NCBI GenBank assembly: GCA_964588955.1
Contig: CAZPQJ010000006.1
Coordinates: 3,580-67,579 of the forward strand
Reading direction: 5' to 3'
Source of the DNA: an uncultured Gammaproteobacteria bacterium
GTDB lineage: Bacteria; Patescibacteriota; Patescibacteriia; UBA9934; CAMTUG01
Length of the DNA stretch: 64,000 nt
Shown here piece after piece: positions 8,038-64,000 of the stretch (positions within the stretch are counted from its first letter, which is position 1; the number at the start of each line of letters is the position of its first letter). The notes beneath the pieces are model-generated. The model searched no databases, was not told the DNA's origin, and worked only from the letters and a program-made list of their open reading frames with translations. The position numbers and the translations under genes were made by a program.

Positions 8038-9027
8038 TTACTTTTTAAAAATGTGTTCGCGATGGTAGGCAAGATATTCTTTCCTTTTGTTGCTTGGCGG
8101 CAGGGTAAACTTTCTTCCGTTCACAAGACTTAACTTCTTGATATTGAGAGGGGAGATGTATGGTGAAATAGCTATGATTCCATCATCCTGAAATGTAATA
8201 AATCCTTGATCAAATAGACGATCATAGGTAGGAGTCAAAAGTAACCCGTTGTTAAAATCAACTTTCTCGACATCGCTTGAGACGCTCCATGGTTTGATAT
8301 GACTTGCAACTAGGACACGTTCATCATTTACTCTCGTGATGACGCACTCAGAAGATTCGTCGAGCAACTTACGCCGGTACGTACCTTGTCCGATGCGTGC
8401 CTTAACGAGTTGTTCTTTTTCTTGAGCCGGGAGCACTTTCTCTTCAATCTCTTTTTCAACCTCACGTTCTTTTGCTGGATGATAATACGTGTTAAACGCG
8501 TAACTCAAGAGAGGTCTGAATAGAAAGAAAATAGTGCCGTCGGCAGCTTTAAGTTTGACAATAGAAACAAATGAGATGATTGGCAGAGCAATACCTCTAA
8601 AGTAGTCAAAAATACGCTCCTCAGACTTTATATAAAAACGTGAGGTATCCTGAGGCACTGCCCGTTCAAAGCTAAAGACTTCTCTATCAAGCAAATTCTG
8701 TAATTCTTGATAATATCCATCCCATGAACTAGAGATATCTTGACGATACTTTTGTTCTTGTTGCTCGTATTCGAATTTAGCGTCGTCTAGGTAATCAACC
8801 AAATCTCTTTTAAGAAATATTCCTTTCCCACTAAAATCCCCAAAGAAATCCCCGAAATCTTTCTTTTGCTGAGCACCTACATATAGCTTCGCCTCACCAT
8901 GTCCAGTTGTCCCCTCAAGTTTGTTATTTTTGACAAATGAATCTGCAATCGGAATGTTATCTACTTCATCGAGTACCTCAAATCGTTGTCCATCGATTTC
9001 TAGGAAGGTTGTTTCTTGATCAGTCAT
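8038..9027 (-). CDS. HNH-family endonuclease, putative type II restriction endonuclease
   Basis: The C-terminal RIGQGTYRRKLLDESSECVITRV...ASHIKPW block is the HNH_2-type nuclease motif. The N-terminal ~200 aa have no motif I recognise. The gene is AT-rich and co-oriented with, and 2 nt from, the C5-methyltransferase gene. Confidence 0.6.
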   Translation of the reverse strand: MTDQETTFLEIDGQRFEVLDEVDNIPIADSFVKNNKLEGTTGHGEAKLYVGAQQKKDFGDFFGDFSGKGIFLKRDLVDYLDDAKFEYEQQEQKYRQDISSSWDGYYQELQNLLDREVFSFERAVPQDTSRFYIKSEERIFDYFRGIALPIISFVSIVKLKAADGTIFFLFRPLLSYAFNTYYHPAKEREVEKEIEEKVLPAQEKEQLVKARIGQGTYRRKLLDESSECVITRVNDERVLVASHIKPWSVSSDVEKVDFNNGLLLTPTYDRLFDQGFITFQDDGIIAISPYISPLNIKKLSLVNGRKFTLPPSNKRKEYLAYHREHIFKK

Positions 9028-9029
9028 AA

Positions 9030-10127
9030 CTATAAATTCACTTTTGTTGAACTAACACCCATGTTTCTTAAAATGGCCATCAGAACATTGACCACGATAC
9101 TATTACCAGCTTGTTTATACATTTGCGTGTCGCTGACGACAATTTTAAAACTATCATCAAAGCCCATCAATCTCAAGCACTCTCGCGGTGACAGCTTTCG
9201 TATCCCCCCGCTGCGAGTAATATAGTTATCTACTCCAGCCCGATGCATTTTAGCCATTGTCGCCAGCAGCGGCCGAGCGATGGCTAGATCTGTTTCCGGT
9301 TTACTGTAAAACTTTTTTGTTCCGCTCGCCAAAACATACTTTGTTACTTTATCTGAAAGGAAATACTTATCATCAACTTTTCCTGCGGGTTGAAAAACAA
9401 AATCACCATGCCAATTAAATTGTTGATTTGCTTTTTGACAAAGTGCGACTCTCCCGTTTATTTGCGTATACTTCTTATCAAGATTTTTTTGACTCGTTAC
9501 AAACTTAATGCCTTTTTCAGGTAAAAAATACTTTTGGTCATACGCATCATCGAGCAAGTCGTGCATGGTTATTTTTAACTCAACAGGGTCGGGAAACTTG
9601 AAGTCTTTATTCTTCCGAAAGCCTACCACAAAGAGTCTCTCCCGATTCTGTGGAATTCCATAATCTTTTGCATTCAGAACCTGGGGAAAGTAGGTGTACC
9701 CAAGTTCATCAAATGTATTTTGAATAACTTCCCACGTTTTTCCGCTATCATGACTTAGTAAACCTTTAACATTCTCAAAAATAAATGCTTTCGGTTTTAT
9801 TTCGTCTATCAGACGAGCAAATTCATAAAATAAGGTACCTCGCGCATCCTTAAATCCTCGCCGTTTCCCGACCATTGAAAATGACTGACAGGGTGAACCA
9901 CCCACAAAAAGATCGACTTTCCCAGTAAACTTTTTTCCATCTATCTCCTGAACAAGATCAAACCAACGGGAGTTATCAACATGGTAGTTAGCAAAAAAAC
10001 TCTTTTTTACGTGCGGATCATTATCACAAGCAAAAACGAGCTCATGCTTTACACGCATGCGCTTTAAGGCATGTTCAATTGCACCTATTCCGCTAAATGC
10101 TGTAGCTAGTCTCAACATAGTGATCAT
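9030..10127 (-). CDS. DNA (cytosine-5)-methyltransferase
   Basis: Motif I is AFSGIGA. Motif IV is the PC motif GGSPCQSFS. Motif VI is ENV (FIFENVKGL). QNRERLFVVG and the target-recognition region follow. Confidence 0.85.
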   Translation of the reverse strand: MITMLRLATAFSGIGAIEHALKRMRVKHELVFACDNDPHVKKSFFANYHVDNSRWFDLVQEIDGKKFTGKVDLFVGGSPCQSFSMVGKRRGFKDARGTLFYEFARLIDEIKPKAFIFENVKGLLSHDSGKTWEVIQNTFDELGYTYFPQVLNAKDYGIPQNRERLFVVGFRKNKDFKFPDPVELKITMHDLLDDAYDQKYFLPEKGIKFVTSQKNLDKKYTQINGRVALCQKANQQFNWHGDFVFQPAGKVDDKYFLSDKVTKYVLASGTKKFYSKPETDLAIARPLLATMAKMHRAGVDNYITRSGGIRKLSPRECLRLMGFDDSFKIVVSDTQMYKQAGNSIVVNVLMAILRNMGVSSTKVNL

Positions 10128-19672: not shown

Positions 19673-20677
19673 ATGTTCTCAAAAAAAATTGCCATCGACT
19701 TAGGCACCACCACGGTCCTCGTTTACATGCCCAAACGAGGCATTATTATCCATGAGCCAAGCGTGGTGGCTATTTCGACGATTGATAAAAAAGTTTTGGC
19801 GGTGGGCAAAGAGGCCAAAGATATGCTCGGCCGCACGCCAGACACGATCGTTGCCAAGCGTCCGCTCAAAGACGGCGTGATCGCTGATTATCGCACCACC
19901 GAAGCCATGCTGCGCTATTTTATTAACAAGGCGCTCGGCGGCATTCGTTTGTTGCGTCCAGAAGTGATGGTGGCCGTGCCGGGTGGGATTACTTCCACCG
20001 AACGTCGCGCGGTGATTGATGCCACGGTGGCAGCGGGAGCTAAAGCGGCTTATATTATTAAAGAGCCAATTGTGGCGGCGATCGGCGCCAACATTCCCAT
20101 TGGTTCGCCGTCGGGGCACATGGTAGTAGACATTGGCGGAGGAACGGCAGAGATGGCGGTGCTATCTTTGGGAGGTATTGTCTCCTCGGCTTCGGTGCGT
20201 ATTGGTGGAGTCAAAATCGACGCGGCCATTCAGGAATTTATTCGTCGCAAATACGGCTTGGCCATTGGCGAGCGCACCAGCGAGGAAATCAAAATTCAAA
20301 TCGGTTCGGCCATGTATATGGCCGACAAGTTGACGATGGAAATTAAAGGCCGCGACATGGTGACGGGCTTGCCGAAGTTTTTAGAAGTGACTTCCGACGA
20401 CGTGACCGAAGCGATTCAAAATGAACTAGAAGGAATTGTGGCCACGGTGAAAGAAGTGCTTCATAAAACCCCGCCAGAACTATCTGCCGATGTGATGGAG
20501 AAGGGGATCGTGCTGACAGGCGGTTCCTCGCAGCTGCGTAATTTGGATCAATTGATCGCTGAAGCCACGGGGGTGCCGACCTATGTGGCCGATGAGCCGC
20601 AAATGTGCGTGGCCAAAGGAACGGGAATTGCTCTTGAAAACCTTGAGGCCTACAAACGCAGCATTTTTAGTAGTTAA
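19673..20677 (+). CDS. mreB: rod shape-determining actin homolog MreB
   Basis: IAIDLGTTTVLVYMP, the DGVIADY phosphate-2 region, the VVDIGGGTAEMAVLSLGG adenosine motif and LTGGSSQLRNLDQLI are all present. Confidence 0.85.
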   Translation: MFSKKIAIDLGTTTVLVYMPKRGIIIHEPSVVAISTIDKKVLAVGKEAKDMLGRTPDTIVAKRPLKDGVIADYRTTEAMLRYFINKALGGIRLLRPEVMVAVPGGITSTERRAVIDATVAAGAKAAYIIKEPIVAAIGANIPIGSPSGHMVVDIGGGTAEMAVLSLGGIVSSASVRIGGVKIDAAIQEFIRRKYGLAIGERTSEEIKIQIGSAMYMADKLTMEIKGRDMVTGLPKFLEVTSDDVTEAIQNELEGIVATVKEVLHKTPPELSADVMEKGIVLTGGSSQLRNLDQLIAEATGVPTYVADEPQMCVAKGTGIALENLEAYKRSIFSS

Positions 20678-20806
20678 ATTCGAAATTCTAAATCACAAAT
20701 CCGAAACAATAGGAAAATCCTAATCGGAAAAGGTGAAAACAGTTTGTGGATTTCTTTTTTAGATTTTAGAATTTGTTTGGTACTTCGGATTTAGAATTTA
20801 GTATTT
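20678..20806. repeat. left arm of ~125-bp inverted repeat flanking the GT4 gene (AT-rich modular repeat family)
   Basis: Its reverse complement matches 21964-22092. About the first 73 nt are identical and the remainder is ~90% identical. It ends 1 nt before the ATG at 20807. Confidence 0.6.
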
Positions 20807-22900: not shown

Positions 22901-22926
22901 CTCGCTTTTTTATGCGTTCTGAAATA

Positions 22927-22964
22927 CAAAAATCTCTGCTGGGGAGAACAGAGATTTTTGTTGT
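22927..22964. terminator. rho-independent terminator
   Basis: caaaaatctctgctggggagaacagagatttttgttg is a perfect 11-bp palindromic stem with A-run and T-run on both sides. Confidence 0.55.
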
Positions 22965-23055
22965 CTTAGAGACCATGAGTCAAATCGTAATTGTCTAACT
23001 CACGGCCTCAGTTGATGCTGGTGGGAGAGTGTCCCATCCGGCGGTCGGAAGGCGT

Positions 23056-23274
23056 TCAACGGCCTTGGTGTTTTCGTTCCAAGTAGCCGTCCGCGTAGAT
23101 CACCACCAGGTCAAGCGTTTGGCAGGTCTTCTGCCAAAACGACTGGTCGGGTTTTTTCCACGCGGCACGGACGAGGCTCACGAAGAGCGCGATCCGACTC
23201 GGGTACTTTCCCGGTACGAACACTTCATGATGTGTGTACTCGGGGTTCTCGGCGAGAGGTATCTCTTTTTTCAT
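23056..23274 (-). CDS. hypothetical protein (72 aa) in high-GC islet
   Basis: MKKEIPLAENPEYTHHEVFVPGKYPSRIALFVSLVRAAWKK... It has sensible composition, lies in tandem with the preceding small gene, and has no recognisable family. Confidence 0.4.
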   Translation of the reverse strand: MKKEIPLAENPEYTHHEVFVPGKYPSRIALFVSLVRAAWKKPDQSFWQKTCQTLDLVVIYADGYLERKHQGR

Positions 23275-23290
23275 TTGTCCTCTTGGGTGT

Positions 23291-23434
23291 TTCAGAGCAC
23301 CCGATCGGCCAGGCTGATCAGCAGGGCGATGGTGAAGCCGAGACCAAGGAACCTCGGCCAGCGGCGAGGCTTCTGATCCTCAACCTCCACGGGGTGGTTA
23401 AAGTGAGGGACTTTCACGTACCGAACGCGATCCA
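23291..23434 (-). CDS. hypothetical small membrane protein (47 aa)
   Basis: MDRVRYVKVPHFNHPVEVEDQKPRRWPRFLGLGFTIALLISLADRVL was found by hand because it is below the ORF-track cut-off. It is preceded by a conserved leader that is shared with the gene at 23590..23979. Confidence 0.35.
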
Positions 23435-23520
23435 TGAGATTTCTCGTGGTTGAGGGAGATATGCTTCGTCCCGAACGATTCGAGCTTCCGCGAAAGAAGT
23501 GGCGATGGTGTCGTCAGTTC
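23435..23520 (-). promoter_or_regulatory. conserved leader/operator-like module (copy 1 of pair)
   Basis: The minus-strand sense is ttcgcggaagctcgaatcgttcgggacgaagcatatctccc...ATG. It contains the near-palindrome cgaacgattcg. Its paralog is 23980..24060 (~80% identical over ~60 nt). Confidence 0.35.
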
Positions 23521-23589
23521 TTTTGCGGAGGGGATCGATGTTCTCGATCCCCGCCATGACCGTCAGCTCGGCCGAGACGTCTTGCTGAA

Positions 23590-23979
23590 TTAGAACGGAT
23601 CCCGGGGGAGCCTGCAACGGTCCTCGAAGAACCTTGCCGTCTTCCCGTACTCGAACGGATTTGTACGCAGGGCGCACAGAATCCGCTGGAAGACCATCCA
23701 TTTGGTCTCCGGGACCCAAATCTCCCATTCCTGGTTCCACAGGATGAGCCTACAGGGGATCCGCAGTTCATCCGCGTACTGAACCAGATAGTGCCACTGC
23801 ACTTCATGCTGTGCGAATTCCCGACCATCTCGGGTCGGGCGGACGTCGCCACCGCGCGCCGCTTGCGCACGGGTCTCCTGTTGGAGCCTCGTTGTGGCGA
23901 ACTCGACGCTGTCCCCCTTCTTGAAAGGGGTGACGAGCTCCTTGATCCAGTTCGGGGCATCGAAAAGAGGGTGGGCCAT
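23590..23979 (-). CDS. hypothetical protein (129 aa) in high-GC islet
   Basis: The start is set at MAHPLFDAPNWIKEL, preceded by caggagtctgacATG, which has a good AGGAG ribosome-binding site. The upstream extension to 24108 lies inside the repeated leader. Confidence 0.45.
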   Translation of the reverse strand: MAHPLFDAPNWIKELVTPFKKGDSVEFATTRLQQETRAQAARGGDVRPTRDGREFAQHEVQWHYLVQYADELRIPCRLILWNQEWEIWVPETKWMVFQRILCALRTNPFEYGKTARFFEDRCRLPRDPF

Positions 23980-24060
23980 GTCAGACTCCTGTGGGGGGAG
24001 AGGTGCTTCCGCTCGAAGGGTTCGAGTTTCCGCGAATGAAGCGACGATCTGTGGGGTGAG
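23980..24060 (-). promoter_or_regulatory. conserved leader/operator-like module (copy 2 of pair)
   Basis: ttcgcggaaactcgaacccttcgagcggaagcacctctccccc...ATG is paralogous to 23435..23520. Confidence 0.35.
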
Positions 24061-24199
24061 ATCTTCGACTCGTTCGCGGTGAGGTCTATCAGAATTGATG
24101 GACCTCACGTTGAGACGTTGGATGACGCAAGGGAGTTTTCACTGCTACCTCACTCATCCGCGAAATCCGCATTTTTACCGGTTGCGGTTCCGGAGCCTT

Positions 24200-24952
24200 T
24201 CAGGCGGCGAGGCGGGCGAGTTCGGCCGCGATGACCCGCTTGACCTCGTTGGCGCGCGGGTGGCGCTCGACCATGGCCTTCAGGTCCTTGCTGGTCGCCG
24301 GCAGGGTGGCGCCCAGCTGGTGCCCCTTGGCCTTGACGGCCATGAACACCTGGGACACCTGGTGGCGGTTGCTGAGGCGCGTCCAGGCGACCTCGACCTG
24401 TGTCGTCAGGGGCTCGACGACCGCCTCCTCGATGATGAAGTCGGCGTCGTTGGGCACCGGCGCGCACATGGCGATCGGCGCCTCGACCTCGAGGTCGGCC
24501 ACGGTCGGCTGGCGCTTGAGGACGTTGAGCCCGAGCTTGCGCTCGCAGGTGATCCGCAGGTTGCGGATCGACCGCTCGGCCTTGGGGTCGGTGCCGCTGG
24601 CCTTGAGGAGCCAGACGGCCACGCGACCCTTGCCGATGAACTCGAGCCCGAGGACGTCGCGGCGGATCGCCACGACCCAGGTGGGGTTCCGCCTCCCCGA
24701 CGCCATGGCGCCGAGGATCTGGAAGCCGTCGCCCATGACGGCGGCCATCCAGGGGCGGTTCGAGAACTCGCTCTCGATCACCATCCCCGGCGCCTTCTGC
24801 TCGGCGTCGAACTCCCGCAGGGCGAGCTCACGCCGTCGGTCGGCCACGAAGGCCTCCTTGGCCCGCTCCGTGGCCATCGGGTTCGTGCGGACGAACCGGC
24901 TGAGGGCGGCGGCGAGGGACGGGGTGAGGGACTTGATGATGCTGGAACGCAC
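24200..24952 (-). CDS. hypothetical protein (250 aa), largest gene of the high-GC islet
   Basis: The composition is balanced (K/E/R/A) with a coiled-coil-like N-terminus (ATERAKEAFVADRRRELALREFDAEQKA). The overlapping plus-strand ORFs are R/G/D/H-rich antisense artefacts. No family is recognised. Confidence 0.45.
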   Translation of the reverse strand: MRSSIIKSLTPSLAAALSRFVRTNPMATERAKEAFVADRRRELALREFDAEQKAPGMVIESEFSNRPWMAAVMGDGFQILGAMASGRRNPTWVVAIRRDVLGLEFIGKGRVAVWLLKASGTDPKAERSIRNLRITCERKLGLNVLKRQPTVADLEVEAPIAMCAPVPNDADFIIEEAVVEPLTTQVEVAWTRLSNRHQVSQVFMAVKAKGHQLGATLPATSKDLKAMVERHPRANEVKRVIAAELARLAA

Positions 24953-25092
24953 GGGGGACTCCTGGATGGGGGGGCTTTGGTGTCTATGTCCGGACCTACA
25001 GATTGCTTTCCGGATCTTAGTACCGAATCACGTGTTCATAATTCGATCCTTAGATGCGGAGGGGACCGAGTGCCAGTCCCCTCGAAGCGCGT

Positions 25093-25281
25093 TCAAAAGC
25101 CGGGGCGGTGGGAAGCCCGAGCGATCTCCTGGCGGCGAACCGCCTCGGAGAACTCCCGGCTTCCTACGTGTCGCCGACCAAGGAGATCTTGGATCTCCCG
25201 ATCGGCGACACGCTCATCCCGCGATCCTCTTCCGGCTCGATCGAGCCGGTCGAGAATCGTGTTCTCGATGTTCCAATTCAT
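25093..25281 (-). CDS. hypothetical protein (62 aa)
   Basis: MNWNIENTILDRLDRAGRGSRDERVADREIQDLLGRRHVGSREFSEAVRRQEIARASHRPGF has its start at ggagggaccATG, a strong ribosome-binding site. The longer track ORF starts inside the conserved leader. Confidence 0.4.
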   Translation of the reverse strand: MNWNIENTILDRLDRAGRGSRDERVADREIQDLLGRRHVGSREFSEAVRRQEIARASHRPGF

Positions 25282-25372
25282 GGTCCCTCCGGGATCGGTG
25301 ATTGAGGAGCGAAATTGCTGCCTCACCGAATGACACAATCTTTTGGATTCTGTCTTTTGGTGAAGGGCAGCG
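25282..25372 (-). promoter_or_regulatory. conserved ~90-nt leader with 10-bp inverted repeat (copy 1)
   Basis: The minus-strand sense is gctgcccttcaccaaaagacagaatccaaaagattgtgtcattcggtgaggcagcaatttcgctcctcaatcaccgatcccggagggaccATG. It pairs cttcaccaaa/ttcggtgagg. Its paralog is at 25537..25628. Confidence 0.35.
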
Positions 25373-25413
25373 CGTTGAGTTCGCGCCGCCCGACGAAGGT
25401 CAGGCCCTGGGTC

Positions 25414-25536
25414 CTACCAACCCTTGGGAGGCTTCACGAGAAGCCTCCACAGGATGATTGCGAGTGCCGTCGCGATCGCGAAGTCCAGGAACGGGGAGCA
25501 GAAGCTCCCCCAAAAGATATCGTAAATCGTCTGCAT
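25414..25536 (-). CDS. hypothetical small membrane protein (40 aa)
   Basis: MQTIYDIFWGSFCSPFLDFAIATALAIILWRLLVKPPKGW starts at cctggagggatcATG. The long upstream extension in the ORF track is G/R/P-rich junk. Confidence 0.35.
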   Translation of the reverse strand: MQTIYDIFWGSFCSPFLDFAIATALAIILWRLLVKPPKGW

Positions 25537-25628
25537 GATCCCTCCAGGATCTGTGGTTGAGAGAGCTGAAGTGCTCCTCACCAAATGACAGAATCGTTTT
25601 TGATTATGTTCTTTGGTGAGGGGCGGCT
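25537..25628 (-). promoter_or_regulatory. conserved ~90-nt leader with perfect 10-bp inverted repeat (copy 2)
   Basis: gccgcccctcaccaaagaacataatcaaaaacgattctgtcatttggtgaggagcacttcagctctctcaaccacagatcctggagggatcATG pairs cctcaccaaa/tttggtgagg perfectly, with a 27-nt spacer. Confidence 0.35.
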
Positions 25629-25661
25629 GTGAAGCAGCCGCCTCAGAGAGTCGGGGACCGA

Positions 25662-25868
25662 TCAGGCCGCGCGGCTCGTCGATCGGGATTTGTACGGCGC
25701 GAACGGTCGCGCCGACTGGGTCGCCACGGTCGGCCGGTGGCGGGTTGTCGGCATCGGCGCATTGCGCACGATGCCGATGATGTACGCGACGAGGCCGAGC
25801 CCCACCGCGGTGAACAGGACAGCGACCAGGCCGTCCCCAAAAGCCGACATCCATTGCTGGACTTCCAT
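25662..25868 (-). CDS. hypothetical small membrane protein (68 aa)
   Basis: MEVQQWMSAFGDGLVAVLFTAVGLGLVAYIIGIVRNAPMP... has one TM helix and a GC3-rich minus-strand frame. Confidence 0.35.
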   Translation of the reverse strand: MEVQQWMSAFGDGLVAVLFTAVGLGLVAYIIGIVRNAPMPTTRHRPTVATQSARPFAPYKSRSTSRAA

Positions 25869-26347
25869 TCGATACCCCCGAAGGAGTTCTACTGAGCGAA
25901 GGGATTCCGCTCATGCATCTGGAGGGTAGGGCCTCAGTGACCTGCCCGAAGGCTGGTGTGGGGCATGACCGACGAGGGTGTAATGAGTGAGCGAGGCCCA
26001 GTCATTACATTCGCCGATCGATCCTCCTTCGCTCTTTGCAGAGCTTCGGAAGGACTTACTCTCTCCTCCATGTGCATGAACGCAAAACCGCTTGTCTGCC
26101 TTGATCTGTTCTAGAGAGATCAAGTCAAACAAGCGGTAACGAACGGGCACTTGGCTTACCTAAAGATAGATAGCCGTAGCCGTTCGTGTTGACTCTCTCC
26201 CCAGAGAATATATTCAGTTTTGAAGCCGCGTTGATGAGCTCGTAACTCATCTTCGCGAGGGATTACTCTACCACTTTTTTGCCCTTTTGTCAAGAGTTCA
26301 GCGCCACTTCATAGCTAATATTAGCCACTTTTTTCCACCCTCTTTTT

Positions 26348-27202
26348 GTGCTATACTTAGTCAATATGACGGAATCCGCCCATCAGCTGATTGGACACGC
26401 TCGAGCACTCGATGTGCTTAACCGTCTGCAAACCAACGGCCGGTTGGGGTCAGCTTTGTTGATTGTGGGAGCCAATGGGGTTGGCAAGCGCGCGTTAGTG
26501 GAAATCGTTTTCGGCTCACTCGCGACTAATCCCAATGCCATGGTGATTGAACGGGCGTTGAACGATAAAGACGAACTGAAAAAGAATATCAGCATTGATC
26601 AAGTGCGTGATCTGGTTGCTCGCATGGGTTTGAGTACTTTTGGGACGGGAAAAAAGATCGGCTTGATTGACGGCGCGGAATTCTTGTCGATGGATGCTTC
26701 AAACGCCTTGTTAAAAACGTTAGAAGATCCTACCGGCGACACGCTCATGATTTTGCTGGCCACGTCGACGCAAACGATTCCCGCGACGGTTTTGTCGCGT
26801 TGCCAAACAATCTATTTGCCGTTAGTCGCTCGTGCCGAAATTGTTCGCGCGCTCACGGAGCGTGGAGCGAGCGCGACCGTGGCGAACGAGATCGCCGAGT
26901 CTGCCTGCGGCCGTCCGGGACTGGCGCTGCGACTTCTTCAGAACCCCGAGTTGTTGGCACAACGTCGCGAGCAGGCGCAGCAAGTCAAACAATTGATCTC
27001 TGCACCACTCGCGGTGAAACTCGGACGTATTGGCGAATATACAAAAGCAGACAAAGCGGAACTGGAAGCTACACTCGATACGTGGGAAACAACCCTTCAT
27101 GCCGACGGTCAACATCTGCTACTGAAGAAGTTGATCCGCGCCCGTGCCGCCATTCGTCAAAACGTTCATCCAACCCTGGCACTTGAACACGCCTTTCTTT
27201 AA
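26348..27202 (+). CDS. holB: DNA polymerase III delta' subunit
   Basis: It has an AAA+ box (LIVGANGVGKRAL), LLKTLEDP (sensor-1 region, consensus LLKTLEEP) and SRCQ (arginine finger / box VII). Confidence 0.75.
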   Translation: MLYLVNMTESAHQLIGHARALDVLNRLQTNGRLGSALLIVGANGVGKRALVEIVFGSLATNPNAMVIERALNDKDELKKNISIDQVRDLVARMGLSTFGTGKKIGLIDGAEFLSMDASNALLKTLEDPTGDTLMILLATSTQTIPATVLSRCQTIYLPLVARAEIVRALTERGASATVANEIAESACGRPGLALRLLQNPELLAQRREQAQQVKQLISAPLAVKLGRIGEYTKADKAELEATLDTWETTLHADGQHLLLKKLIRARAAIRQNVHPTLALEHAFL

Positions 27203-27213
27203 TTATTTTTTGT

Positions 27214-28260
27214 ATGAAAAAAATCATTCTTCTTTTCGTTGCCTTGTCCTTAACTGGCGCCGGTTGTCTAAACGTCAAAACAAAGTCGGTCGACAATGGT
27301 GGTGTGTATGTTACGAACAACGCGGGTGCCAAGTGGTCGGCTAAATCCTTATTGCCAACGGCAAGTGGCGTGGCTTCCATTGATTCAGCCAACGTCGAAG
27401 CGATCACCTTTGATCCGCAAGATCCAGACACGCTGTATTTGGGAACGAGCGCCAACGGCATGTTGGTTTCGTACGACAACGCGGAGAGCTGGCAGTTGAT
27501 TAAAGAGCCAGAAATGCGCAGTGGAACGGTAAAAAGTATTGCCGTGGATCCAAAAGACGTCTGCACTGTGTACGTGGCCAAAGGAGCGAACCTTATGAAA
27601 ACCACCGATTGTCTGCGTTCGTTCGACACGCAAGCGTTTGTGGAAACGAATGGTAAGGCGGTCGATGTGGTGCGTACGGACTGGTATAACGATCAAAACG
27701 TTTGGCTCGGAACGGCCGCTGGAGACATTGTCAAAAGCACTGATGGTGGAAAAAGTTGGTCAACGCTTGGGCGCCCCAAAGATGCGTTGGTCGATATTCT
27801 GGTTAGCAATGGTGACAGCCGCGTGGTCTTTGCGGTGACTGAAAGCAAAGGCATTTGGCGCACCACCGACGGCGGAGCCTTTTGGCATGTGTTGACCGAC
27901 GAGTTAGCGGCGGTCGGAGACTTGGGCAAAGGACGATTCATGACCCAGTCTAAAGACGGCAGCATTTTCTACTACGTTTGCGAGTACGGCATTTTGCGTT
28001 CGGTCGACCAGGGCGCCAGCTGGTCCGCGCTGACCTTGCTCACCAAGCCAAAGAGCACGGTGATTTATTCCATGGCGGTGAGCCCGTTTGATGCCAATGT
28101 GTTGTACTACAGCACGGCTAACACCTTTTATTCTTCCACCGACGGCGGAGCCACCTGGAACACCCGCGAACTGCCTAGCACCCGCACAGCGACGGTGATG
28201 ACGGTGGATCCAAACGATGCTTCGCTGTTGTTGGCAGGATTTGCGACGATAGAAAAGTAG
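27214..28260 (+). CDS. lipoprotein with BNR/Asp-box repeats (Ycf48-like beta-propeller)
   Basis: The lipobox is LTGAGC. There are at least five SxDxGxxW repeats (YDNAESW, STDGGKSW, TTDGGAFW, SVDQGASW, STDGGATW). Confidence 0.6.
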   Translation: MKKIILLFVALSLTGAGCLNVKTKSVDNGGVYVTNNAGAKWSAKSLLPTASGVASIDSANVEAITFDPQDPDTLYLGTSANGMLVSYDNAESWQLIKEPEMRSGTVKSIAVDPKDVCTVYVAKGANLMKTTDCLRSFDTQAFVETNGKAVDVVRTDWYNDQNVWLGTAAGDIVKSTDGGKSWSTLGRPKDALVDILVSNGDSRVVFAVTESKGIWRTTDGGAFWHVLTDELAAVGDLGKGRFMTQSKDGSIFYYVCEYGILRSVDQGASWSALTLLTKPKSTVIYSMAVSPFDANVLYYSTANTFYSSTDGGATWNTRELPSTRTATVMTVDPNDASLLLAGFATIEK

Positions 28261-35154: not shown

Positions 35155-35230
35155 GCCGCGGTAGCTCAGTTGGTAGAGCGCATCCATGGTAAGGATGAGG
35201 TCGCCAGTTCAATCCTGGCCCGTGGCTCCA
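35155..35230 (+). tRNA. tRNA-Thr (anticodon GGT)
   Basis: It folds by hand: acceptor GCCGCGG/CCGTGGC, D-arm GCTC-AGTTGGTA-GAGC, anticodon arm CATCC-ATGGTAA-GGATG, T-arm GCCAG-TTCAATC-CTGGC. CCA is encoded. Confidence 0.85.
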
Positions 35231-46958: not shown

Positions 46959-48506
46959 TCAGAGGTGGGCGGAAGATTTCTCAGTGGGAAGTCGACGGTT
47001 GTCGCAGCGGCCGCGACTGGCGAAGTCGTGCCAGATTTGTTCGCGTGTTGCGTCCATCGTACTGCCGATGTAGTAGAAGTGTCGGACGTTCTTGAGGCGT
47101 TTGCTGAGCATTTGCCAGTCGGCGAGCTTGCCGCACATGTCGGTGGTGGGCGCTTCGCGGTGCTGGTAGATGGCGAGAAGGATGACGTAGTTGGTGAAGA
47201 GCCGGAATTCATCCGGGGTCTTACCGTCCAGCTGCCATTCGCTCGCCAAACGCATCTCTTCATCCAGCAAGACGCTTTCTGCGGTGTAGAAGGGCACGCG
47301 ATCAATGCTGCTCTTCACCCACATACCGCTCGCGCAAAGGGCGAGGGCGCTGAGAACGTAGGCGTACGTATTGATACGGGAGGTGGGAATGTGTTCCTTC
47401 AGGAGAGGGGCGGTGGCGTTGAACCAGATGGCGGCGACGGTCATGGTACAGATCGCGGGCATCAGGCAGTAACGAACACCAATTGCGGCATTGTGCATGG
47501 CGTAGAGGGTTCCGGGCAGGTTGCCAAGAATCCAGCCAGCCGCGATTCCGGCGAGCCCGAGCGACAGGCGACGATTGGTACTCCACATGGCTCCGGCTGC
47601 GATCAAGACAGCGCCAGTTCCGACGTAACCGAGCGTGGCAATGTGCCAAACAATACTGTCGGGTACATAGACCATCCGCGAGTAACGCGGTCCGATCGTT
47701 TGTCCGATTTGAAAGAGCTGGGTTCCGAGTTGGGCGCAGAAGAGCGCGATGTTCTGCGGGTCCTGGATGAGGCGTCCAAGCGCCAAGCGGACGACCGGAA
47801 TCGGCATGATCGACGCGTAGAGGCACCAGTGGATCACAGCTCCCACGCCTGCCGCGCATCCGATCGTGAGAACCGCGCGCTTGGGTTGTCCGAGAAGGAG
47901 AACCACGACGGGAAACCACAGGCCGTTGATCGTTGCCGTCGGTTTGGCAAAGCCCGCGCACAGGGTGAAGGCGAGCGCGGTAAGCGCCATGCCACGAGGG
48001 GTGTTGCGCGACGTGAGCACGTTGAGTCCGATGATCAGCAGAAACGTACCGAGAATGTCGGACAGATCCGACGCCCAGGGAACGCTATCGGCGAACAGTG
48101 GATGGGTGGCAACGAGGGTGGCGCACCCCAGACTGTAGACCGGCTTGCCGCTCACCCGTTTCACGCAGGCGTAGACACCGAAGATCGTTCCGATGAATAC
48201 GCCGACGTTGAGCAGGCGAAACGGAACGATGCTCGTACGTCCGAACATCCAGGCCGTCAGATCGTGCAAGGTTGCCGCGAGCGGCGACCAAGGCACCGGA
48301 TTGCGGGCATACCCCGGAACCGTATAGGTCCCCGCGGACCATTCCTGCAAAATGCGCGAGAGCGGATGGGGATCGTTTGTGGGGGCGATGATGGCCGTGA
48401 CGTCGTCGAGCACGCCGCTCGGAACCGCGGTGTAGGCACCGGCGGCGTAGACACAGACGATACAGACGAGCACCAGCCAACAAAACCGGGTGGCATTCTT
48501 GGACAC
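46959..48506 (-). CDS. polytopic membrane protein, GT-C-type glycosyltransferase-like (ArnT/PMT-like)
   Basis: It has ~12 hydrophobic helices and an early extracytoplasmic loop with acidic residues. The opposite-strand 519-aa ORF is R/G/D-rich junk. The family call is tentative. Confidence 0.5.
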   Translation of the reverse strand: MSKNATRFCWLVLVCIVCVYAAGAYTAVPSGVLDDVTAIIAPTNDPHPLSRILQEWSAGTYTVPGYARNPVPWSPLAATLHDLTAWMFGRTSIVPFRLLNVGVFIGTIFGVYACVKRVSGKPVYSLGCATLVATHPLFADSVPWASDLSDILGTFLLIIGLNVLTSRNTPRGMALTALAFTLCAGFAKPTATINGLWFPVVVLLLGQPKRAVLTIGCAAGVGAVIHWCLYASIMPIPVVRLALGRLIQDPQNIALFCAQLGTQLFQIGQTIGPRYSRMVYVPDSIVWHIATLGYVGTGAVLIAAGAMWSTNRRLSLGLAGIAAGWILGNLPGTLYAMHNAAIGVRYCLMPAICTMTVAAIWFNATAPLLKEHIPTSRINTYAYVLSALALCASGMWVKSSIDRVPFYTAESVLLDEEMRLASEWQLDGKTPDEFRLFTNYVILLAIYQHREAPTTDMCGKLADWQMLSKRLKNVRHFYYIGSTMDATREQIWHDFASRGRCDNRRLPTEKSSAHL

Positions 48507-50939: not shown

Positions 50940-53900
50940 ATGCTATCTTTTTTGCGTGGCAGAGGTTCTCAGCATATCGCGGGTGTCTTTTTCGTCTGCG
51001 TTTTTTTATTTTTTGGGAACTTGTTCTTTACCCATCAGGCCCATGCCGCGGTTGTTACCTGGACAGGTTTAGGGCTCGATGGACAATGGAATACCGGCAC
51101 GAACTGGAGCACGGGATCAAAACCAGCAGCAGCAGATACAGCGACTTTTGATGGAACCTGCGGAGTTAACTGTGCAGTAACCATCAACACCAACGTCAGT
51201 ATTACCGCCATTAACATGGCTTCTGGATACACGGGAACAATCACGCAAAGCAATACAAACACCGTGGCGTTAACGGGGTCGTTTACTCTTACGGCGGGAA
51301 CCTATGTGGGTTCGACGCAAACTTTATCGATTGCTACAACGTATACACAGACAGGAGGAACGTTTACAGGGGGTTCCGGAACGGTGACGCATACAGGGGC
51401 GTTTACCTTAAGCGGCGCGGGTGCTGTTTACACTGCTTCCAGCGGCACAACCATTTTTAGTAGTAACTTTACCCATTCAGCTGGTACGGGAACATTTACG
51501 CATAACAGCGGTTTGGTCAGTATTACCGGAGGAAGCACAAGGACATTTGATTTTGCTACCAGCGAAACGTTTGGTAGCGTTACTTTGAATAAAACAACGG
51601 CCACGAGTTTAACCATTGCTTCTGGTGACACCATGATCGTGACAGGCACGAGTACGCTTACGGACGGAAATCTTACGACTGGTACATGGGACGCACGGGG
51701 AACGACGAGTTGGGCCTCAACATTTGACGGTGGAACTGGGACGCTGCTCCTGGGAGGTTCGGCGGTTGTTGCAGCGACACTAAACTCCGGGAACACCGCT
51801 GTCAACTTGAGCATCACGAACGCCAACGTCACTGTTGATACCGCGGGTTCGGGAACAGTCGCGGTGGGCGCATTAACCATGTCTGCCGGTGTTCTGAACG
51901 CGAATGCGGCAACCATGACCTATTCTGGCGCCGTGGCACTCAGCGGGGGAACGTATAACGCGCCAACGTCCGGAGCAGGAACAACGACGTTTAGTTCGAC
52001 ATTTGACCAAACATTGACGGGTGTGTTTGCGGGCGGTACGAATGCAGTCACGCACACGGGTGCGTTTACGCTGAGCGGTGCGGGGGCGACCTATACGGCA
52101 ACAAGCGGTACAACAACATTTAGCGCGGGGTTTACACATACAGCCGGTACAGGCACATTCACTCACAATAATGGTTCCGTAAAGTTTTCCGGTTCAGCAT
52201 CAACCACCAACGTCGCTACAAGCGAAGCGTTTTATAACGTGGAGCTGGCGAAGAATAACGCTACCTTGTTGACTGTTTCTTCCGGAGATACTTTGGTGGT
52301 AAATAACACACTCACACTTACCAATGGTGGCTTTGGGACGGGAACCGTCGAGGCGCTTAATACGATTTCGTTGAACGCGGGTTGGGACGGGGGAGGCGGA
52401 ACGTTGTTAATTGATGGCGTCAATACGCAAACCCTTGCTCTCAACGGAGGTGGTGCGGCTATCGCGAGTACAGTTACCTTAAACAACGCGAATTTTACGT
52501 TTAGTGGTACCGGTGCTGGAACATTGACCTTTAGCGCCGTAAACCTCCAAGCTGGAACCATTGATGCCACGGGATACAGCATGACGTTTAGTGGCGCCTA
52601 TAACCAATCCGGCGGAACGTTTACGGGAGGAAGCGGAACGGTGACGCATTCCACGTTCACCCTTTCAAATGGTACATACACCGCAACAAGCGGTACAACA
52701 AACATTTCAACAACATGGACGCACTCAGCCGGAACATTTAATCACGGGAGCGGAACGATTTCTTCTACCGGCGGCACGTTCACCATGACAATTGTTGATC
52801 AAGACGTGTTTTATAACGCCACATTTACTGTAACGAATGCAAACACACGAACCATTTCTGGAGGAACGTTGATCGTTGCCAACACATTCTATTTCAGCAG
52901 CGGTGGCGGTGCGCTCACAGGAACGTTTGATCTGCGCGGTGACATTACGGGAGGTGGGACAACATTTCCTGGGACAAGAACTATCTCCATTACGGGAACT
53001 GCAGATCAAACGTGGAGTATTCCTTCTGGATTCAGTGGAACATTTACTGTTGATAAAAGTGCGGGGACAGTGAATCAAACAACCGCTATTACAACAGGAA
53101 CTTGGACCTTTACAGCAGGGACCTGGAACGCGAATGATTCCGGATTCACCCCTAACTCAACTTACACCCACAATGGAGGAACGATGAATTTTGGAGGATC
53201 CACGGTCACTTTAGGAAACTTTACTTTTTCCGCTGGGACAGTTAATGCGACAACGGCAACCATGACGGTTAATGGAAACTGGACGCACACAGCGGGCGGT
53301 ACGTTTAACCACAACAATGGAAGCGTGAGTATCTCTACGGGGACAACCGCTGTTGATGTCGCGAGCACAGAGACGTTTTATAATTTGACAGTATCTCCAT
53401 CGAGTACAAGAACGATTACGATTGCCAACGGTGATTCTTGTATCGTGTTAGGAACGCTTACGCTAAGTGGAAGCAATGGAACGATCGCACAAACAACAAA
53501 ACCAGCCGAGGGAAGTTTTCAATTATATGGCGACCTAACGTTAGGCGCGAGTTTTGCTAATGCGACGACAACATTTGGTTTTTATGGTAGCGCTACGCAG
53601 CACCTCACGGAGGGGGCTGCAAAGGCGATTGGAAATATTACCATTGATAAATCGGGCGGATCAGTCATTTTGGATTCTACGCTCGACGACGGGAATACCA
53701 TGACCGTAACGGTAACGAATGGGACGCTCGACCTGAATGGCAACGCCATCTCCATGAACGCCACGAGCTCAAAATTGATCATTAATGCGGGCGGCACGCT
53801 CAAACTTCAGGGTGGCGAAACGATCACCACCACGGGCGCCTCCTATCCACAATGGGACGCGGGAAGCACAATCTATTATTACGGTACGGGAGCCGCTTAT

Positions 53901-56900
53901 ACGCTCAAAAATTATTCCGGATATAAAAATGTTGTCCTCGACGGCACGGCGGCAACGACGGTATTTACCTTGCCTGCTACTACATCGATCGCGGAGAATC
54001 TCACCATCACCAACGGTATACTTTCTCTCGCGGGCTTTGGTCTTACCGTAAGCGGCACGTTTAGTAATAATGATAACGTCCGTCAAATCGGATCGGAAAC
54101 TGTTTCTTTAACGCAAGATGTCGATTCAGGAACGTGGACGTATCTTGGGGATGGCGACGCCGCAGCAGATACCTACACGCTGGTAGATTTTGGGGTGACA
54201 GACTATTATAACCTGATTGTTGCGACGACTGATGCAGTGGACATCATTCAATCCGCTGGCGCAAAAGCTATTGCCGGTACGTTGGTTATTTCGTCGGGAA
54301 CGTACGATGCCAATGGACAAACAACCGCCACGACGGGGCTCGTCACGCTTTCGGGGGGAACGTATACGGGGGGATCCGCGACGCAAACATTTAACGCGGG
54401 GTTAACCCTTACAGGCGGAACATACACCGGAAGTTCAGGTGCAGCCGACGTCAATGGAACACTGACGCTTACTACCGGAACTTTTACCGCACCAACGTCG
54501 ACGACCATCTCCGGTGATTTTGTGAAAGGAGCGGCGACGTTTACTCACAATAGCGGTACGGTGACGTTCGATGCGAATACTAATCACAGCATTACCGGAA
54601 GTCCAAGTTGGAATTCGCTAACCTTACAGGACAGCAACGATAACGCCACCGACGTTGTTTTGACCATTGAAGCTGGATCCACGCAGACGATCAACGGAAC
54701 GTTAACGCTGGATGGACTTGATGCTTCGGATCGATTGAATATTGTTTCCTCATCACCAACGACAGCGTCGACGTTTGATTTTGAAGGCGCTTCAACGTTC
54801 AGTGGTGATTTTCTCGATATCACGGACAGTGTGGTAACAGATAATTCATCGGGCGTCAGCGCGCCGATCAACCCGTCGAATTCCGTAGAGGGTACGAATA
54901 CGACGAACTGGTTTTCTTCCACTCCCGCCGGCATTACGGTCTCCGCCATTTCCGGCAACACCACAGAAGCCGGCGGCACGGCGACGTTTACGGTCGTGCT
55001 AGACTCTCAGCCCTCTAACGACGTGGTCATCGGCATTTCTTCCAGCGACACCAGTGAGGGAACGGTTTCCGCCGCTTCGCTTACCTTTACCAACGGAAAC
55101 TGGAGCACGCCGCAAACGATTACCGTCACGGGTGTGAATGACGACTTGGACGACGGCGACATTGCTTACACGGTTATAACGGCCGCCGCCACCTCGGCCG
55201 ACGGCAACTACAACGCCATCAATCCCGCCGACGTCGCGGTTACCAACACCGACAACGATACTTCTGGCTTCACTGTTTCCGCGATCTCGGGAAACACCAC
55301 GGAAGCGGGTGGAACAGCCACCTTCACGGTCGTGTTGACCGCCCAGCCAACCGCGGACGTTTCTATTGGCATTACGTCTGATGATACGACGGAAGGTACT
55401 GTCTCCGCGCCAAGCCTCACGTTTACCGCAGGAAATTGGAGCACGCCGCAGACTGTTACGGTTACTGGTGTCAATGACGATTTGGATGATGGAGACATTG
55501 CCTACAATATTATTACGGCTGCCGCTACCTCGGCCGACGGCAACTACAACGCCATCAATCCCGCCGACGTCGCGGTTACCAACACGGACAATGACGCCTC
55601 GGGCTTTACGGTTTCGGCAATCTCGGGAAACACCACAGAAGCCGGCGGTACGGCAACAGCAACGATTGTGTTGACCGCCCAGCCAACGGCCGATGTCACC
55701 GTCGGCATTACCAGTTCAGACACCACCGAAGGTACGGTGTCGCCCGCGTCGGTTACGTTCACGAGCGGTAATTGGTCAACACCGCAGACAATCACTGCTA
55801 CGGGTGTAAATGACGATCTTGATGATGGAGATATTGCCTATTCCTTAGTCACGGCTGCGGCGAGTTCTGCCGACGGGAATTACAACGGTATCAACCCTGC
55901 TGACGTAAACGTCACCAACACCGACAACGATACTTCTGGCTTCACTGTTTCCGCGATCTCGGGAAATACCACGGAAGCGGGTGGAACAGCTACCTTCACG
56001 GTCGTGTTGACCGCTCAGCCAACCGCGGATGTTTCTACGGGTATTTCTTCAAATGACACAACCGAGGGTACAGTTTCGGTGGCCAGTCTCACGTTCACGA
56101 GCGGCAACTGGGCAACGCCACAAACCGTCACGGTTACCGGCGTGGATGATTTGGTCGACGATGGCGATGTTGCTTATGCGATTGTAACGGCCGCTGCAAG
56201 TTCGGCCGACGGCAACTACAACGCCATCAATCCCGCCGACGTCACGGTTACCAACACGGACAACGACACAGCTGGCGCAACAGCAAGCGCTATTTCCGGT
56301 CACACCACAGAAGCGGAAGATACAGCGACATTTACGGTCGTTTTGACGGCGCAGCCAACGGGCGACGTGAGTATTCCACTTTCGTCTTCGGACGCGACGG
56401 AAGGCGCCGTGAGCCCTGCGAGTCTTACCTTCACTAACCTCAATTGGGACACGCCGCAAACGGTGACGGTGACTGGGGTTGATGATTCACTTGATGATGG
56501 CGATGTTGCGTTCAGTGCCTTGCTCGGGGCGATCACTTCGACCGATGGGGCGTACAGCGGTTTGAATCCTGCCGACGTAACTGTCATCAACGACGATAAC
56601 GACACTTCCGGCTTCACCGTTTCCGCCATTTCCGGTAATACCACGGAAGCCGGCGGCACGGCTACATTTACCATCGTGTTGACCGCTCAGCCAACCGCGG
56701 GCGTCACCATTGGGCTCAGCAGCTCGGACACGACAGAGGGTACGGTTGCGGCGAGTACATCGTTTACCACGGTGAACTGGAACACTCCAAAAACGATTAC
56801 CGTGACGGGTGTTGATGATGTTATTGACGACGGCACGGTTGCCTATTCCATTATTACCGCCGCCGCCAGTTCTGCCGATACCAACTACAACGGTTTGAAC

Positions 56901-63212: not shown

Positions 63213-64000
63213 CTAGATCTGGGAGAATGACTGGAAGAAGGTGAAGTTCTCTTGAACGACCTGCCGTCGATGAACATCCTTGATCATGTCGGTGATCGGG
63301 TTCTCATTTTGGATGAGTTGCCAGATCGGTTCCGGCGCTCCAAGCTCGCCGACCGGAGCCATGTACCACTCTCCGACAGATCCGCGACCTTTCCAACGGA
63401 GGCGCTGGCCGTTTTCTTCGACAGCGAATTCAGCTTCCTGGTGCCACGGCGCAACGTCCGTCTTGAAGTGAGATTGCCAGATCACCGGCTGAGCCCGTTC
63501 AAGATCGCGTAGGAGGCTCGGCGCGTCGGGGCGGATGCCGGCTTCTCGCAGAATGGTGTGGAACAGATCGACGGTCGAGACCGGGGTCTGCACGGTTCGC
63601 GGGCTCAGGTTGGGGCCGAGGATCCACAGGGGGACACGGATGCAGGCATCACTCACGGTCTGCACGTGATAGGCGTCGCCTTGTTCGCCGTGGGCGTCAC
63701 CGTGATCGGAGCAGATGATCAGCAAAGTGTCTCCAGCCTCGTTGACCGTGTTGGCGAAGGTGTCGATCAACGATGCCAAACGTTTCCAGGCCACCTGCTG
63801 ACGGCACCGAAGTACGGAGAGCATGTCCGGAGTGATGGTCATGTGGTCGGTTTTCAACCATCCTTCGTCCACGAAGCGGAACAGCGCCTGAATTTCGCGA
63901 AGCTTGTCCACGAAGTTAGTGCTCACCGTGCCTTCGCCGAAGAGCAGGTTGGAGAGCGTGGTCTCGTGGGTGGTATGGTACGGAAAGTGTCCGTCCATTA
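63213..64000 (-). CDS. sulfatase / alkaline-phosphatase-superfamily protein, N-terminus beyond window edge
   Basis: LIICSDHGDAHGEQGDAYH is the C-proximal metal-binding SDHG motif of sulfatases. The N-terminal C/S-x-P-x-R region would lie beyond 64000. Confidence 0.5.
   Translation of the reverse strand, partial: MDGHFPYHTTHETTLSNLLFGEGTVSTNFVDKLREIQALFRFVDEGWLKTDHMTITPDMLSVLRCRQQVAWKRLASLIDTFANTVNEAGDTLLIICSDHGDAHGEQGDAYHVQTVSDACIRVPLWILGPNLSPRTVQTPVSTVDLFHTILREAGIRPDAPSLLRDLERAQPVIWQSHFKTDVAPWHQEAEFAVEENGQRLRWKGRGSVGEWYMAPVGELGAPEPIWQLIQNENPITDMIKDVHRRQVVQENFTFFQSFSQI

Follow-up and report, generated by a model that had tools for sequence, protein, structure and literature searches.

A G+C-rich array of variable small genes between a conserved structured RNA gene and trmB in Uhrbacteria-related bacteria

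In this study, we analysed a 64 kb stretch of DNA (contig CAZPQJ010000006.1, hereafter the window) from a bacterium of the Candidate Phyla Radiation (CPR) and, within it, a G+C-rich islet of seven small minus-strand genes between trmB and holB, whose borders could be refined to 23017-25880. The islet is not a one-off foreign insert, as had been considered in a first-pass annotation of the window; the same locus is found in many related CPR bacteria. Directly visible from the comparison are the anatomy of the locus, a conserved frame around non-conserved cargo, a mosaic RNA and a strong compositional contrast. With modest confidence, we propose that the islet represents the variable cargo of a lineage-specific, hypervariable and cassette-like operon, which occupies a fixed slot, carries a conserved promoter and RNA and exchanges its cargo by recombination. 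In gene order, the locus reads as follows (GC3, G+C content at third codon positions; MFE, minimum free energy of the fold):

26265..26293, minus strand: predicted sigma-70-type promoter, TTGACA, 17-nt spacer, TAGAGT, TG extended -10; scan match 10/12
25880..26258, minus strand: structured RNA, ~380 nt, with the invariant motifs UUCUCUGGGGAGAGAGU and UGGAGGAGAGAGUA
25662..25868, minus strand: gene G, 68 aa, single transmembrane helix, then a basic Pro-rich tail, GC3 0.84; independently called
25573..25644, minus strand: twin hairpins of the G-F spacer, MFE -39.0 kcal/mol, z = -8.0
25414..25536, minus strand: gene F, 40 aa, single transmembrane helix, GC3 0.80, ribosome-binding site ggaggg; independently called
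25317..25392, minus strand: twin hairpins of the F-E spacer, MFE -38.3 kcal/mol, z = -6.5
25093..25281, minus strand: gene E, 62 aa, highly charged, GC3 0.65, ribosome-binding site ggaggg
25005..25085, minus strand: twin hairpins of the E-D spacer, junction TCCCCTCCGC, MFE -37.1 kcal/mol, z = -4.8
24200..24952, minus strand: gene D, 250 aa, 70.5% G+C, GC3 0.97; the G+C-rich core of the islet
23980..24199, minus strand: D-C spacer, several hairpins; second copy of a 58-nt leader repeat at 23991-24048
23590..23979, minus strand: gene C, 129 aa, GC3 0.75, ribosome-binding site caggag
23484..23555, minus strand: twin hairpins of the C-B spacer, junction GATCCCCTCCGC, MFE -34.4 kcal/mol, z = -6.6
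23292..23435, minus strand: gene B, 47 aa, C-terminal transmembrane helix, GC3 0.75; independently called
23056..23274, minus strand: gene A, 72 aa, GC3 0.68; independently called
22920..23016, no strand assigned: conserved end element holding a bidirectional intrinsic terminator hairpin (22926-22961), 80-83% identical in L006, L008 and L013

The terminator hairpin is canonical in form and common to the array end and the convergent trmB. Around the array, the gene order is DUF4012, mreB, a GT4 glycosyltransferase gene, trmB, the array, the RNA, holB, a BNR-repeat protein, ribosome recycling factor (RRF) and prolyl-tRNA synthetase. Conserved promoter and RNA adjoin holB in 11 of 11 genomes, namely the window, L004, L006, L007, L008, L010, L012, L013, L019, L022 and L023. 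From trmB to holB the order is kept in L006 (holB 60% identical), L008 (54%) and L010 (53%), which together with the window are the genomes where trmB is seen on the far side; array, RNA, holB and the genes beyond are kept in L022 (holB ~45%) and L023 (39%, labelled Candidatus Uhrbacteria). Wherever downstream sequence was available, minus-strand genes without a Pfam family follow the RNA. The arrays are ~0.8 kb (L013) to ~4.8 kb (L008) long, and in hosts of 49-60% G+C their genes display a GC3 of about 0.72-0.99 where measured:

L006: array 0.553 G+C versus 0.491 in the flanks; gene GC3 0.74-0.87 versus 0.48-0.51 in flanking genes
L008: array 0.629 G+C versus 0.547 in the flanks; GC3 0.72-0.99 (six of eight called genes, omitting two plus-strand calls that are apparent mis-calls) versus 0.57-0.58
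L010: array 0.615 G+C versus 0.560 in the flanks; gene GC3 0.78-0.97
L013: array 0.625 G+C versus 0.509 in the flanks; GC3 0.78 (one gene)
L022: array GC3 0.74-0.92 versus 0.61-0.71 in flanking genes
L023: array GC3 0.91-0.95 versus 0.66-0.72 in flanking genes

The cargo inside this frame varies strongly. By blastp, cargo proteins could not be aligned between genomes except for the ~250-aa protein, which has a homologous N-terminal domain in the window, L010, L006 and L008; in leave-one-out tests with a hidden Markov model (HMM) of this domain, 0, 0, 2 and 0 of 5000 composition-matched shuffles reached the real score. A D-like motif noted by eye in L004, L013, L022 and L023 was rejected, as the N-terminal HMM detects no member there. 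L010 encodes proteins of 63, 39, 92, 252 and 48 aa, with a GC3 of 0.968 for the 252-aa gene and a 39-aa transmembrane gene at the position of gene B, and it has in common with the window the order D, spacer module, gene, spacer module, small transmembrane gene. As to syntenic homologues of all seven genes in related CPR genomes, which the first-pass annotation had set against a foreign origin, the outcome is split: an equivalent G+C-rich array is found at the same position and the N-terminus of D is shared by four genomes, but homology between genomes is lacking for most of the cargo. Given this, a foreign or exchanged origin of the cargo may still apply.

Turnover is most clearly seen between close relatives. 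The sisters L004 and L010 are 84% identical in holB and 83% in the 5' part of the RNA, yet downstream of the RNA they have only a 56-nt hairpin module in common (89%), tblastx detects nothing else, and the first gene encodes a soluble protein (56 aa) in L004 and a membrane peptide (48 aa) in L010. L007 (holB 69%, RNA 5' part 92%) starts with a 44-aa soluble protein in place of the 68-aa membrane protein G of the window, and in a 97%-identical relative from SRR17347193 the identity ends at the trmB stop codon. The RNA itself is mosaic. While its 5' part and a long hairpin track the holB tree, the 3' domain is incongruent with it (82% identity between window and L010, 77% between window and L007, 72% between L010 and L004). 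A long-form hairpin is limited to the window, L010 and L013; an 87-nt insertion in the RNA of the 97% relative L019 has 90% identity with the one in the distant L013, and L019 additionally carries an L007-type short hairpin. From these patterns of cargo turnover and RNA mosaicism, we infer recombination between lineages, with breakpoints in the RNA and at the hairpin modules.

The compositional contrast, initially judged by eye, stood up to computation of G+C, GC3 and tetranucleotide usage. Positions 23000-26050 contain 61.6% G+C versus 50.8% in the remainder, well beyond a difference of a few percent, and constitute the top 3-kb window within the 64 kb; for the refined islet the values are 61.8% and 50.8%. 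In the sliding window, G+C rises from ~50% at 22950 to 67-71% at 24150-24900 and falls to 45-50% by 26100. The 65-70% G+C given in the first-pass annotation is therefore right for 24150-24900, the only part that reaches 67-71%, and too high as an average (~62%). The tetranucleotide distance of 23017-25880 to the rest is 0.487 (z = 3.9), the strongest outlier against 111 other equal-size windows (mean 0.233, standard deviation 0.065, maximum 0.397). Extreme GC3, likewise claimed for all genes, applies to gene D (0.97) and not to the other six (0.65-0.84); native genes of the window range from 0.36 to 0.65 with two exceptions at 0.74-0.75, and in the array genes G+C at first and second codon positions (GC1, GC2) is raised as well. 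Composition and codon usage are thus indeed foreign to the host chromosome. The right border had been drawn too far, since 25880-26293 (52% G+C) holds the conserved promoter and structured RNA gene and no foreign DNA; two ORFs there (25934-26077 and 26125-26250) are spurious, both lying within the RNA gene.

The seven reading frames of 40-250 aa, picked by position-specific G+C, are real genes, as had been claimed: on Logan contigs, an independent gene caller returned the same seven, with sizes of 72, 47, 129, 250, 62, 40 and 68 aa. The ribosome-binding sites also proved to be as described, with ggaggg for the 40- and 62-aa genes and caggag for the 250- and 129-aa genes, including gene D. For gene D, G+C at the three codon positions is 0.67 / 0.47 / 0.97, just 6 of its 250 codons have A or T in third position, and its GTG start is backed by N-terminal homology to the same-position proteins in L010, L006 and L008. 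Opposite gene D, two long ORFs of 412 and 356 aa on the plus strand were rejected as by-products of high G+C because their GC1/GC2 pattern is wrong. Genes B, F and G each encode one hydrophobic helix; the Shine-Dalgarno sequence of gene G sits within a small CUCC-UUCG-GGGG hairpin, and the gene E product looks, by eye, possibly ribbon-helix-helix-like, which we take as a lead only. Type I toxin-antitoxin systems consist of a small hydrophobic toxin and an overlapping antisense RNA with its own promoter; our promoter scan of the islet detected no plus-strand promoter-like site. Single-sequence AlphaFold2 models were too poor for fold comparison, with a predicted local distance difference test (pLDDT) score of 44.6 for gene D and 48.2 for gene C.

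On the gene strand, the consensus scan places the only promoter-like site upstream of or within the array at 26293-26265, the other minus-strand site (22983-22954) lying beyond the last gene. As the RNA promoter is the sole sigma-70-like site on this strand able to drive the array, a single transcription unit is suggested. The TTGACA and TG/-10 positions are invariant across 8 relatives, and an 8-sequence alignment opens with an invariant TTGACA, a 17-nt spacer and TG-n-TAnnnT. Downstream, 25888-26305 retains 69-81% nucleotide identity in every relative compared (blastn), and nhmmer finds the RNA in 10 other genomes with E-values of 1e-100 to 1e-27. Since tblastx matches spread over several frames on both strands, we read the region as non-coding. 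RNAalifold on alignment A1 predicted 94 pairs; one helix was dropped since it paired the untranscribed -35 box, and covariation was tested on the remaining 89 pairs. Of the alignment cells at these pairs, 92.8% are paired compared to 35-41% with partners slid by 1-3 columns, compensatory double changes occur in 36 pairs compared to 4-10 in the slid controls, and none of 500 column shuffles reached any observed covariation measure. The invariant G-U pairs fit transcription of the RNA from the minus strand. Alignment and covariation show 25880-26258 to be the gene of a conserved, structured RNA behind a predicted promoter of its own; this RNA may represent a new family or a strongly diverged housekeeping RNA, for instance that of RNase P. 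At the gathering threshold, Rfam reports 4 tRNAs only in the whole window; at E up to 1 or 10, the islet, the RNA and four relatives including Uhrbacteria gave chance matches only, among them a truncated 22.8-bit SgrS within gene C and microRNA hairpins. ARAGORN found no tmRNA. In L022, a ~320-nt insertion (2349-2666) interrupts the RNA, with a 36-aa ORF called inside.

With respect to RNase P RNA, the likeness lies in the length of ~380 nt, an own strong promoter, lineage-wide conservation, helix-length variation and lineage-specific insertions, as well as, by eye, CR-IV- and CR-V-like stretches at the 3' end (AGAUGCAUGA, AGUAGAAC). RNase P RNAs of CPR bacteria escape the Rfam thresholds, so that score cut-offs down to 5 bits are needed (PMC8172020). 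RNase P covariance models gave no match in four lineages at E up to 1 or 10; the searches listed unrelated 12-22-bit matches and no RNase P model. In our RNA, by way of difference, the AGAUGCAUGA stretch sits inside a covarying helix, and inspection of alignment A1, the one alignment considered, revealed neither a partner for a P4 long-range helix nor a conserved GGAAAGUCC.

The second recurrent element of the locus is found between the genes. Read on the gene strand, nearly every spacer opens, immediately behind the stop codon, with a pair of abutting hairpins, the first G+C-rich and of 8-11 bp, the second interrupted and of 20-25 bp, followed by 30-40 nt more and the Shine-Dalgarno sequence of the next gene. 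This twin-hairpin fold was obtained in 11 of 11 modules tested from four genomes (z -4.8 to -8.0), with more examples in L022 and L023. Several modules are recognisably copies of each other: G-F and F-E spacer are 81% identical over 95 nt, D-C and C-B spacer share the 58-nt leader (23449-23506 near the C-B hairpins), and the C-B module recurs at 79-91% identity in L006, L008 and L010 and, by inspection, in L022. Stem sequences vary between copies; the architecture and junctions such as GATCCCCTCCGC persist. A U-tract is absent from all spacer hairpins. The hairpin pairs may act on the transcript, through processing, stability, attenuation or masking of the Shine-Dalgarno sequence by a CCUCC junction, and they may instead, or in addition, anchor recombination at the DNA level.

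The earlier statement that the islet genes belong to no recognised family agrees with our searches, which returned no Pfam, PHROG, NCBIfam or PADLOC match; no PHROG was hit at E below 0.01, and PADLOC reported no defence system. Outside the lineage, no homologue of gene D was found among 5.8 billion clustered proteins (word-indexed search) or 1.84 billion representatives (exhaustive phmmer), and a 4-sequence profile of the D family recovered from the 5.8 billion clustered proteins only D itself and the L008 member. One candidate homologue, P0002, was read as spurious, the match covering 27 residues repeated 10 times in a 3534-aa protein. Neither gene C nor the D-family alignment matched PDB sequences, tblastn of genes D and C against GenBank phages and PLSDB plasmids was empty, and scans of IMG/VR with cargo proteins, gene C among them, were empty or gave chance matches; the actinophage or actinobacterial homologues suspected for the 24200..24952 and 23590..23979 products were not found. 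A cargo protein of L008 gave one marginal plasmid match (tblastn, E = 0.02). Matches of the RNA motifs in IMG/VR (L015-L018, L021) were dismissed as chance, the RNA being absent there. It had been noted correctly that integrase, transposase and flanking tRNA are missing: we saw no mobility gene, and the nearest tRNA is at 35155. Between the islet borders, a search for att-like direct or inverted repeats reached a best local alignment of 19 (shuffle mean 17.9, maximum 26). An inovirus or Xer-dependent element was rejected as well, given that the site is without a Zot-like ATPase, a replication initiator or a GC-skew switch. A holB scan of GTDB species representatives did not retrieve the lineage, a scan of JGI metagenomes returned L004 only, and our literature search found no description of such a locus.

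Four other explanations have to be weighed against this background. A chimera, in which the assembly joined a high-G+C contig to a CPR contig, would fit the abrupt compositional change, and we assign it practically no chance. The Logan contig L001 (SRR16481186) is 100% identical to window 22903-27308 and extends from the trmB terminator across the entire islet into holB and further; L002 (SRR16481187) is 100% identical to 23021-24986, so that gene D is present on two separately assembled contigs from different runs. With independent contigs from two runs reproducing the islet and both junctions, and the same architecture in ten other assemblies from different samples, the chimera suspected earlier is ruled out at assembly level. 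We regard it as very improbable that the islet was recently imported from a high-G+C source, for instance an actinobacterium on which the CPR cell lives as an epibiont, or the phages and plasmids of that host. Gene D uses codons as ~70% G+C genomes typically do and the orphans lack a native-like composition, but the searches for gene D in both protein collections and for gene C in phages and IMG/VR were unsuccessful, and an equivalent locus exists in every relative whose contig continues downstream beyond the RNA. Few groups have been sampled as well as Actinobacteria and their phages. That no donor was found speaks against simple import, and with no homologue outside the lineage and a locus conserved in relatives, this part of the first-pass annotation was not borne out. 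Its premise of an actinobacterial host is unsupported: among named relatives, Candidatus Uhrbacteria and not Saccharibacteria come closest, and we know of no actinobacterial host of Uhrbacteria.

An integrative element or prophage that degraded at the 3' end of the RNA gene, supplied a replacement RNA 3' part and lost its integrase is unlikely, though it deserves more consideration. Islands at tRNA and tmRNA genes target their 3' end, and here the array starts directly after the 3' end of a stable-RNA-like gene, whose 3' domain is mosaic and incongruent with the host tree; the foreign composition and the small orphans in one orientation, single-pass membrane peptides among them, would fit as well. 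Opposed to this, Pfam searches recovered no integrase, recombinase or mobility gene in any genome examined, border repeats are at chance level (19 vs shuffle mean 18, maximum 26), no PHROG at E 0.01 and no phage, plasmid or IMG/VR match was obtained, and the arrays measure just 0.8-4.8 kb while the locus spans holB identities from ~39% to 84%. Also improbable to us is a native origin with vertical inheritance and very rapid evolution of the genes, their G+C being driven up locally, for example through GC-biased gene conversion or through selection for G/C-ending codons in a highly expressed and structured transcript. This would account for G+C being raised at the same locus in every relative, for the raised GC1 and GC2, and for the D N-terminal domain and gene/spacer order common to window and L010. 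It is difficult to reconcile with the sisters L004 and L010, whose first cassettes are unrelated and whose similarity is confined to a hairpin module. Moreover, spacers within the array have only 56% G+C compared to 64% in its coding sequence, with GC3 up to 0.97, which speaks against mutation or conversion as the sole drive, and two likely highly expressed native genes are without such bias (RRF, GC3 0.62; the tRNA-Trp neighbour, 0.44).

We therefore return to the exchangeable operon as the reading we favour. In this model, one transcript would run from the conserved promoter through the RNA and the seven genes to the terminator, and the cargo would be replaced by recombination between related lineages, with the conserved RNA, hairpins and terminator serving as homology and with genes drawn from a G+C-rich pool other than the resident chromosome. 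The seven genes would encode three single-pass membrane peptides, three small soluble proteins and one ~250-aa protein with a conserved helical domain at its N-terminus, all accessory and of fast turnover, for example with membrane-active, host-interaction or conflict functions. Several points weigh against this model. The comparison, with relatives found via the holB protein, comprises 11 genomes, several of them on short contigs. The partial continuity of the D family and the similar gene order of window and L010 are also compatible with genes that descend vertically and diverge very rapidly. For the exchange route, no recombinase or mobility gene was detected in or near any array, judged from genes within up to 10 kb (or the contig end) in the window, L006, L008, L010, L022 and L023, and the searches revealed no source for the G+C-rich gene pool. 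The hairpin modules fold equally well on both strands (summed MFE -551 vs -535 kcal/mol), and because of this lack of strand asymmetry, RNA-level and DNA-level roles are not separable. Co-transcription from the RNA promoter is a prediction of the consensus scan, and the RNA may be just a divergent housekeeping RNA that flanks a variable region.

A further-reaching proposal, which we put forward tentatively and consider unlikely, is that RNA, twin hairpins and orphan cassettes together constitute an undescribed integrase-free cassette system of Uhrbacteria-related CPR bacteria, in which the RNA is a functional part and the G+C-saturated cassettes come from a dedicated pool common to the lineage. 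The RNA might then guide or scaffold cassette exchange at the hairpins, or license polymerase read-through.

Little is known of how CPR bacteria, with their tiny genomes, acquire and turn over accessory genes. The locus described here offers a fixed, promoter-driven slot with different orphan genes per lineage, regular hairpin punctuation and an unclassified ~380-nt RNA, which can be modelled from alignment A1. Should the hairpins be exchange sites, the cassette system would need no dedicated integrase; should they serve in processing, they would point to conserved expression of fast-evolving small membrane proteins, maybe in episymbiont-host interaction. A GC3 of 0.9-0.99 in hosts of 49-60% G+C is, at such deep divergence, hard to square with simple amelioration of foreign DNA, which makes the locus a natural test case for GC-biased conversion versus codon selection.

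Some further observations concern the surroundings of the locus in relatives. Between RNA and holB, L006 (9404-9988) and L007 (815-1588) carry an extra plus-strand gene of 194 and 257 aa, respectively; the two are mutually homologous (E ~1e-5) and absent from the window. Directly after trmB, L008 (4064-4264) and L010 (7422-7613) encode a homologous minus-strand ORF of 63-66 aa (36% identity, E = 1e-13), which is likewise absent from the window and in L008 lies outside the conserved terminator element. The two plus-strand calls of L008 (6768-7385 and 6349-6603) display codon-position G+C atypical for coding, with GC1 up to 0.93; the likely true genes lie at the same positions on the minus strand and encode an orphan of ~190 aa with globular appearance and a membrane protein of 85 aa. 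Upstream of holB, L011 (GCA_964357265.1, 1-3361; holB 56% identical) has two plus-strand orphans (272 and 808 aa), and the RNA is missing from this region. In L020 (SRR17347193), positions 1-114 match window 20674-20787, and upstream of trmB an inverted mreB / glycosyltransferase junction is found; the GT4 gene is possibly missing or rearranged, or the short contig misjoined. Elsewhere in the window, a 515-aa multi-pass membrane protein (46959-48506, minus strand) forms a second G+C-rich stretch (~60% G+C, GC3 0.75), with an equally long antisense ORF on the plus strand, and a 261-aa ORF (63213-63998, minus strand) has, at 0.74, the next-highest GC3 of the native-looking genes. Two adjacent genes of 329 and 365 aa (8038-10127, minus strand; 39-40% G+C, GC3 0.36) are outliers in the opposite direction. 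A giant plus-strand ORF of 3635 aa occupies 50940-61847.

Known systems resemble the locus in different respects. Early regions of T7-type phages are polycistronic with RNase III hairpins between the genes, and the array is similar to them in its strong promoter, its many small, fast-evolving orphans in one direction and its stable, irregular hairpins without U-tracts. It differs in having no phage genes or PHROG match and in being chromosomal across a class-level lineage, and its hairpins are predicted from folding. The put RNA of HK022 and the EAR element of Bacillus are cis-acting leader RNAs that render RNA polymerase terminator-resistant; by analogy only, a conserved structured RNA here heads a long operon with many internal hairpins. 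The RNA is 3-5 times longer than these leaders and has no sequence or Rfam similarity to them, and its downstream hairpins, lacking U-tracts, are maybe not terminators.

Closer in layout are integrons, which carry an adjacent tyrosine recombinase, IntI, and the clusters of attC sites lacking an integrase by definition (CALIN). As in these, the genes are co-oriented, mostly promoterless small orphans behind one upstream promoter (here predicted), the cargo varies between relatives, and an imperfect palindromic element follows nearly every gene, with elements conserved and genes varying. In contrast to integrons, no IntI is encoded nearby, a pair of abutting hairpins joined at TCCCCTCCGC or an equivalent junction takes the place of a single attC hairpin, and inspection of 21 spacers found no RYYYAAC / GTTRRRY core-site pair. 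In addition, a ~380-nt structured RNA separates the promoter from the array, GC3 is extreme in the cargo, and cassette variation is here known from sequence comparison. Since IntI and attC core sites were looked for and are absent, we do not file the islet as an integron. Flexible islands adjoin stable RNA genes, as for tRNA- and tmRNA-linked islands or the SAR11 hypervariable region by the rRNA genes, and the locus shares with them a fixed core-gene position after a structured RNA, variable content, deviant composition and mostly unknown genes. It departs from them in the very small array (0.8-4.8 kb), G+C above and not below that of the core, the regular gene-hairpin-gene layout, the single promoter, an unclassified RNA, and the lack of integrase and att repeats. 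With conserved flanks, variable content and deviant composition all observed, we class the islet as a variant of the hypervariable island.

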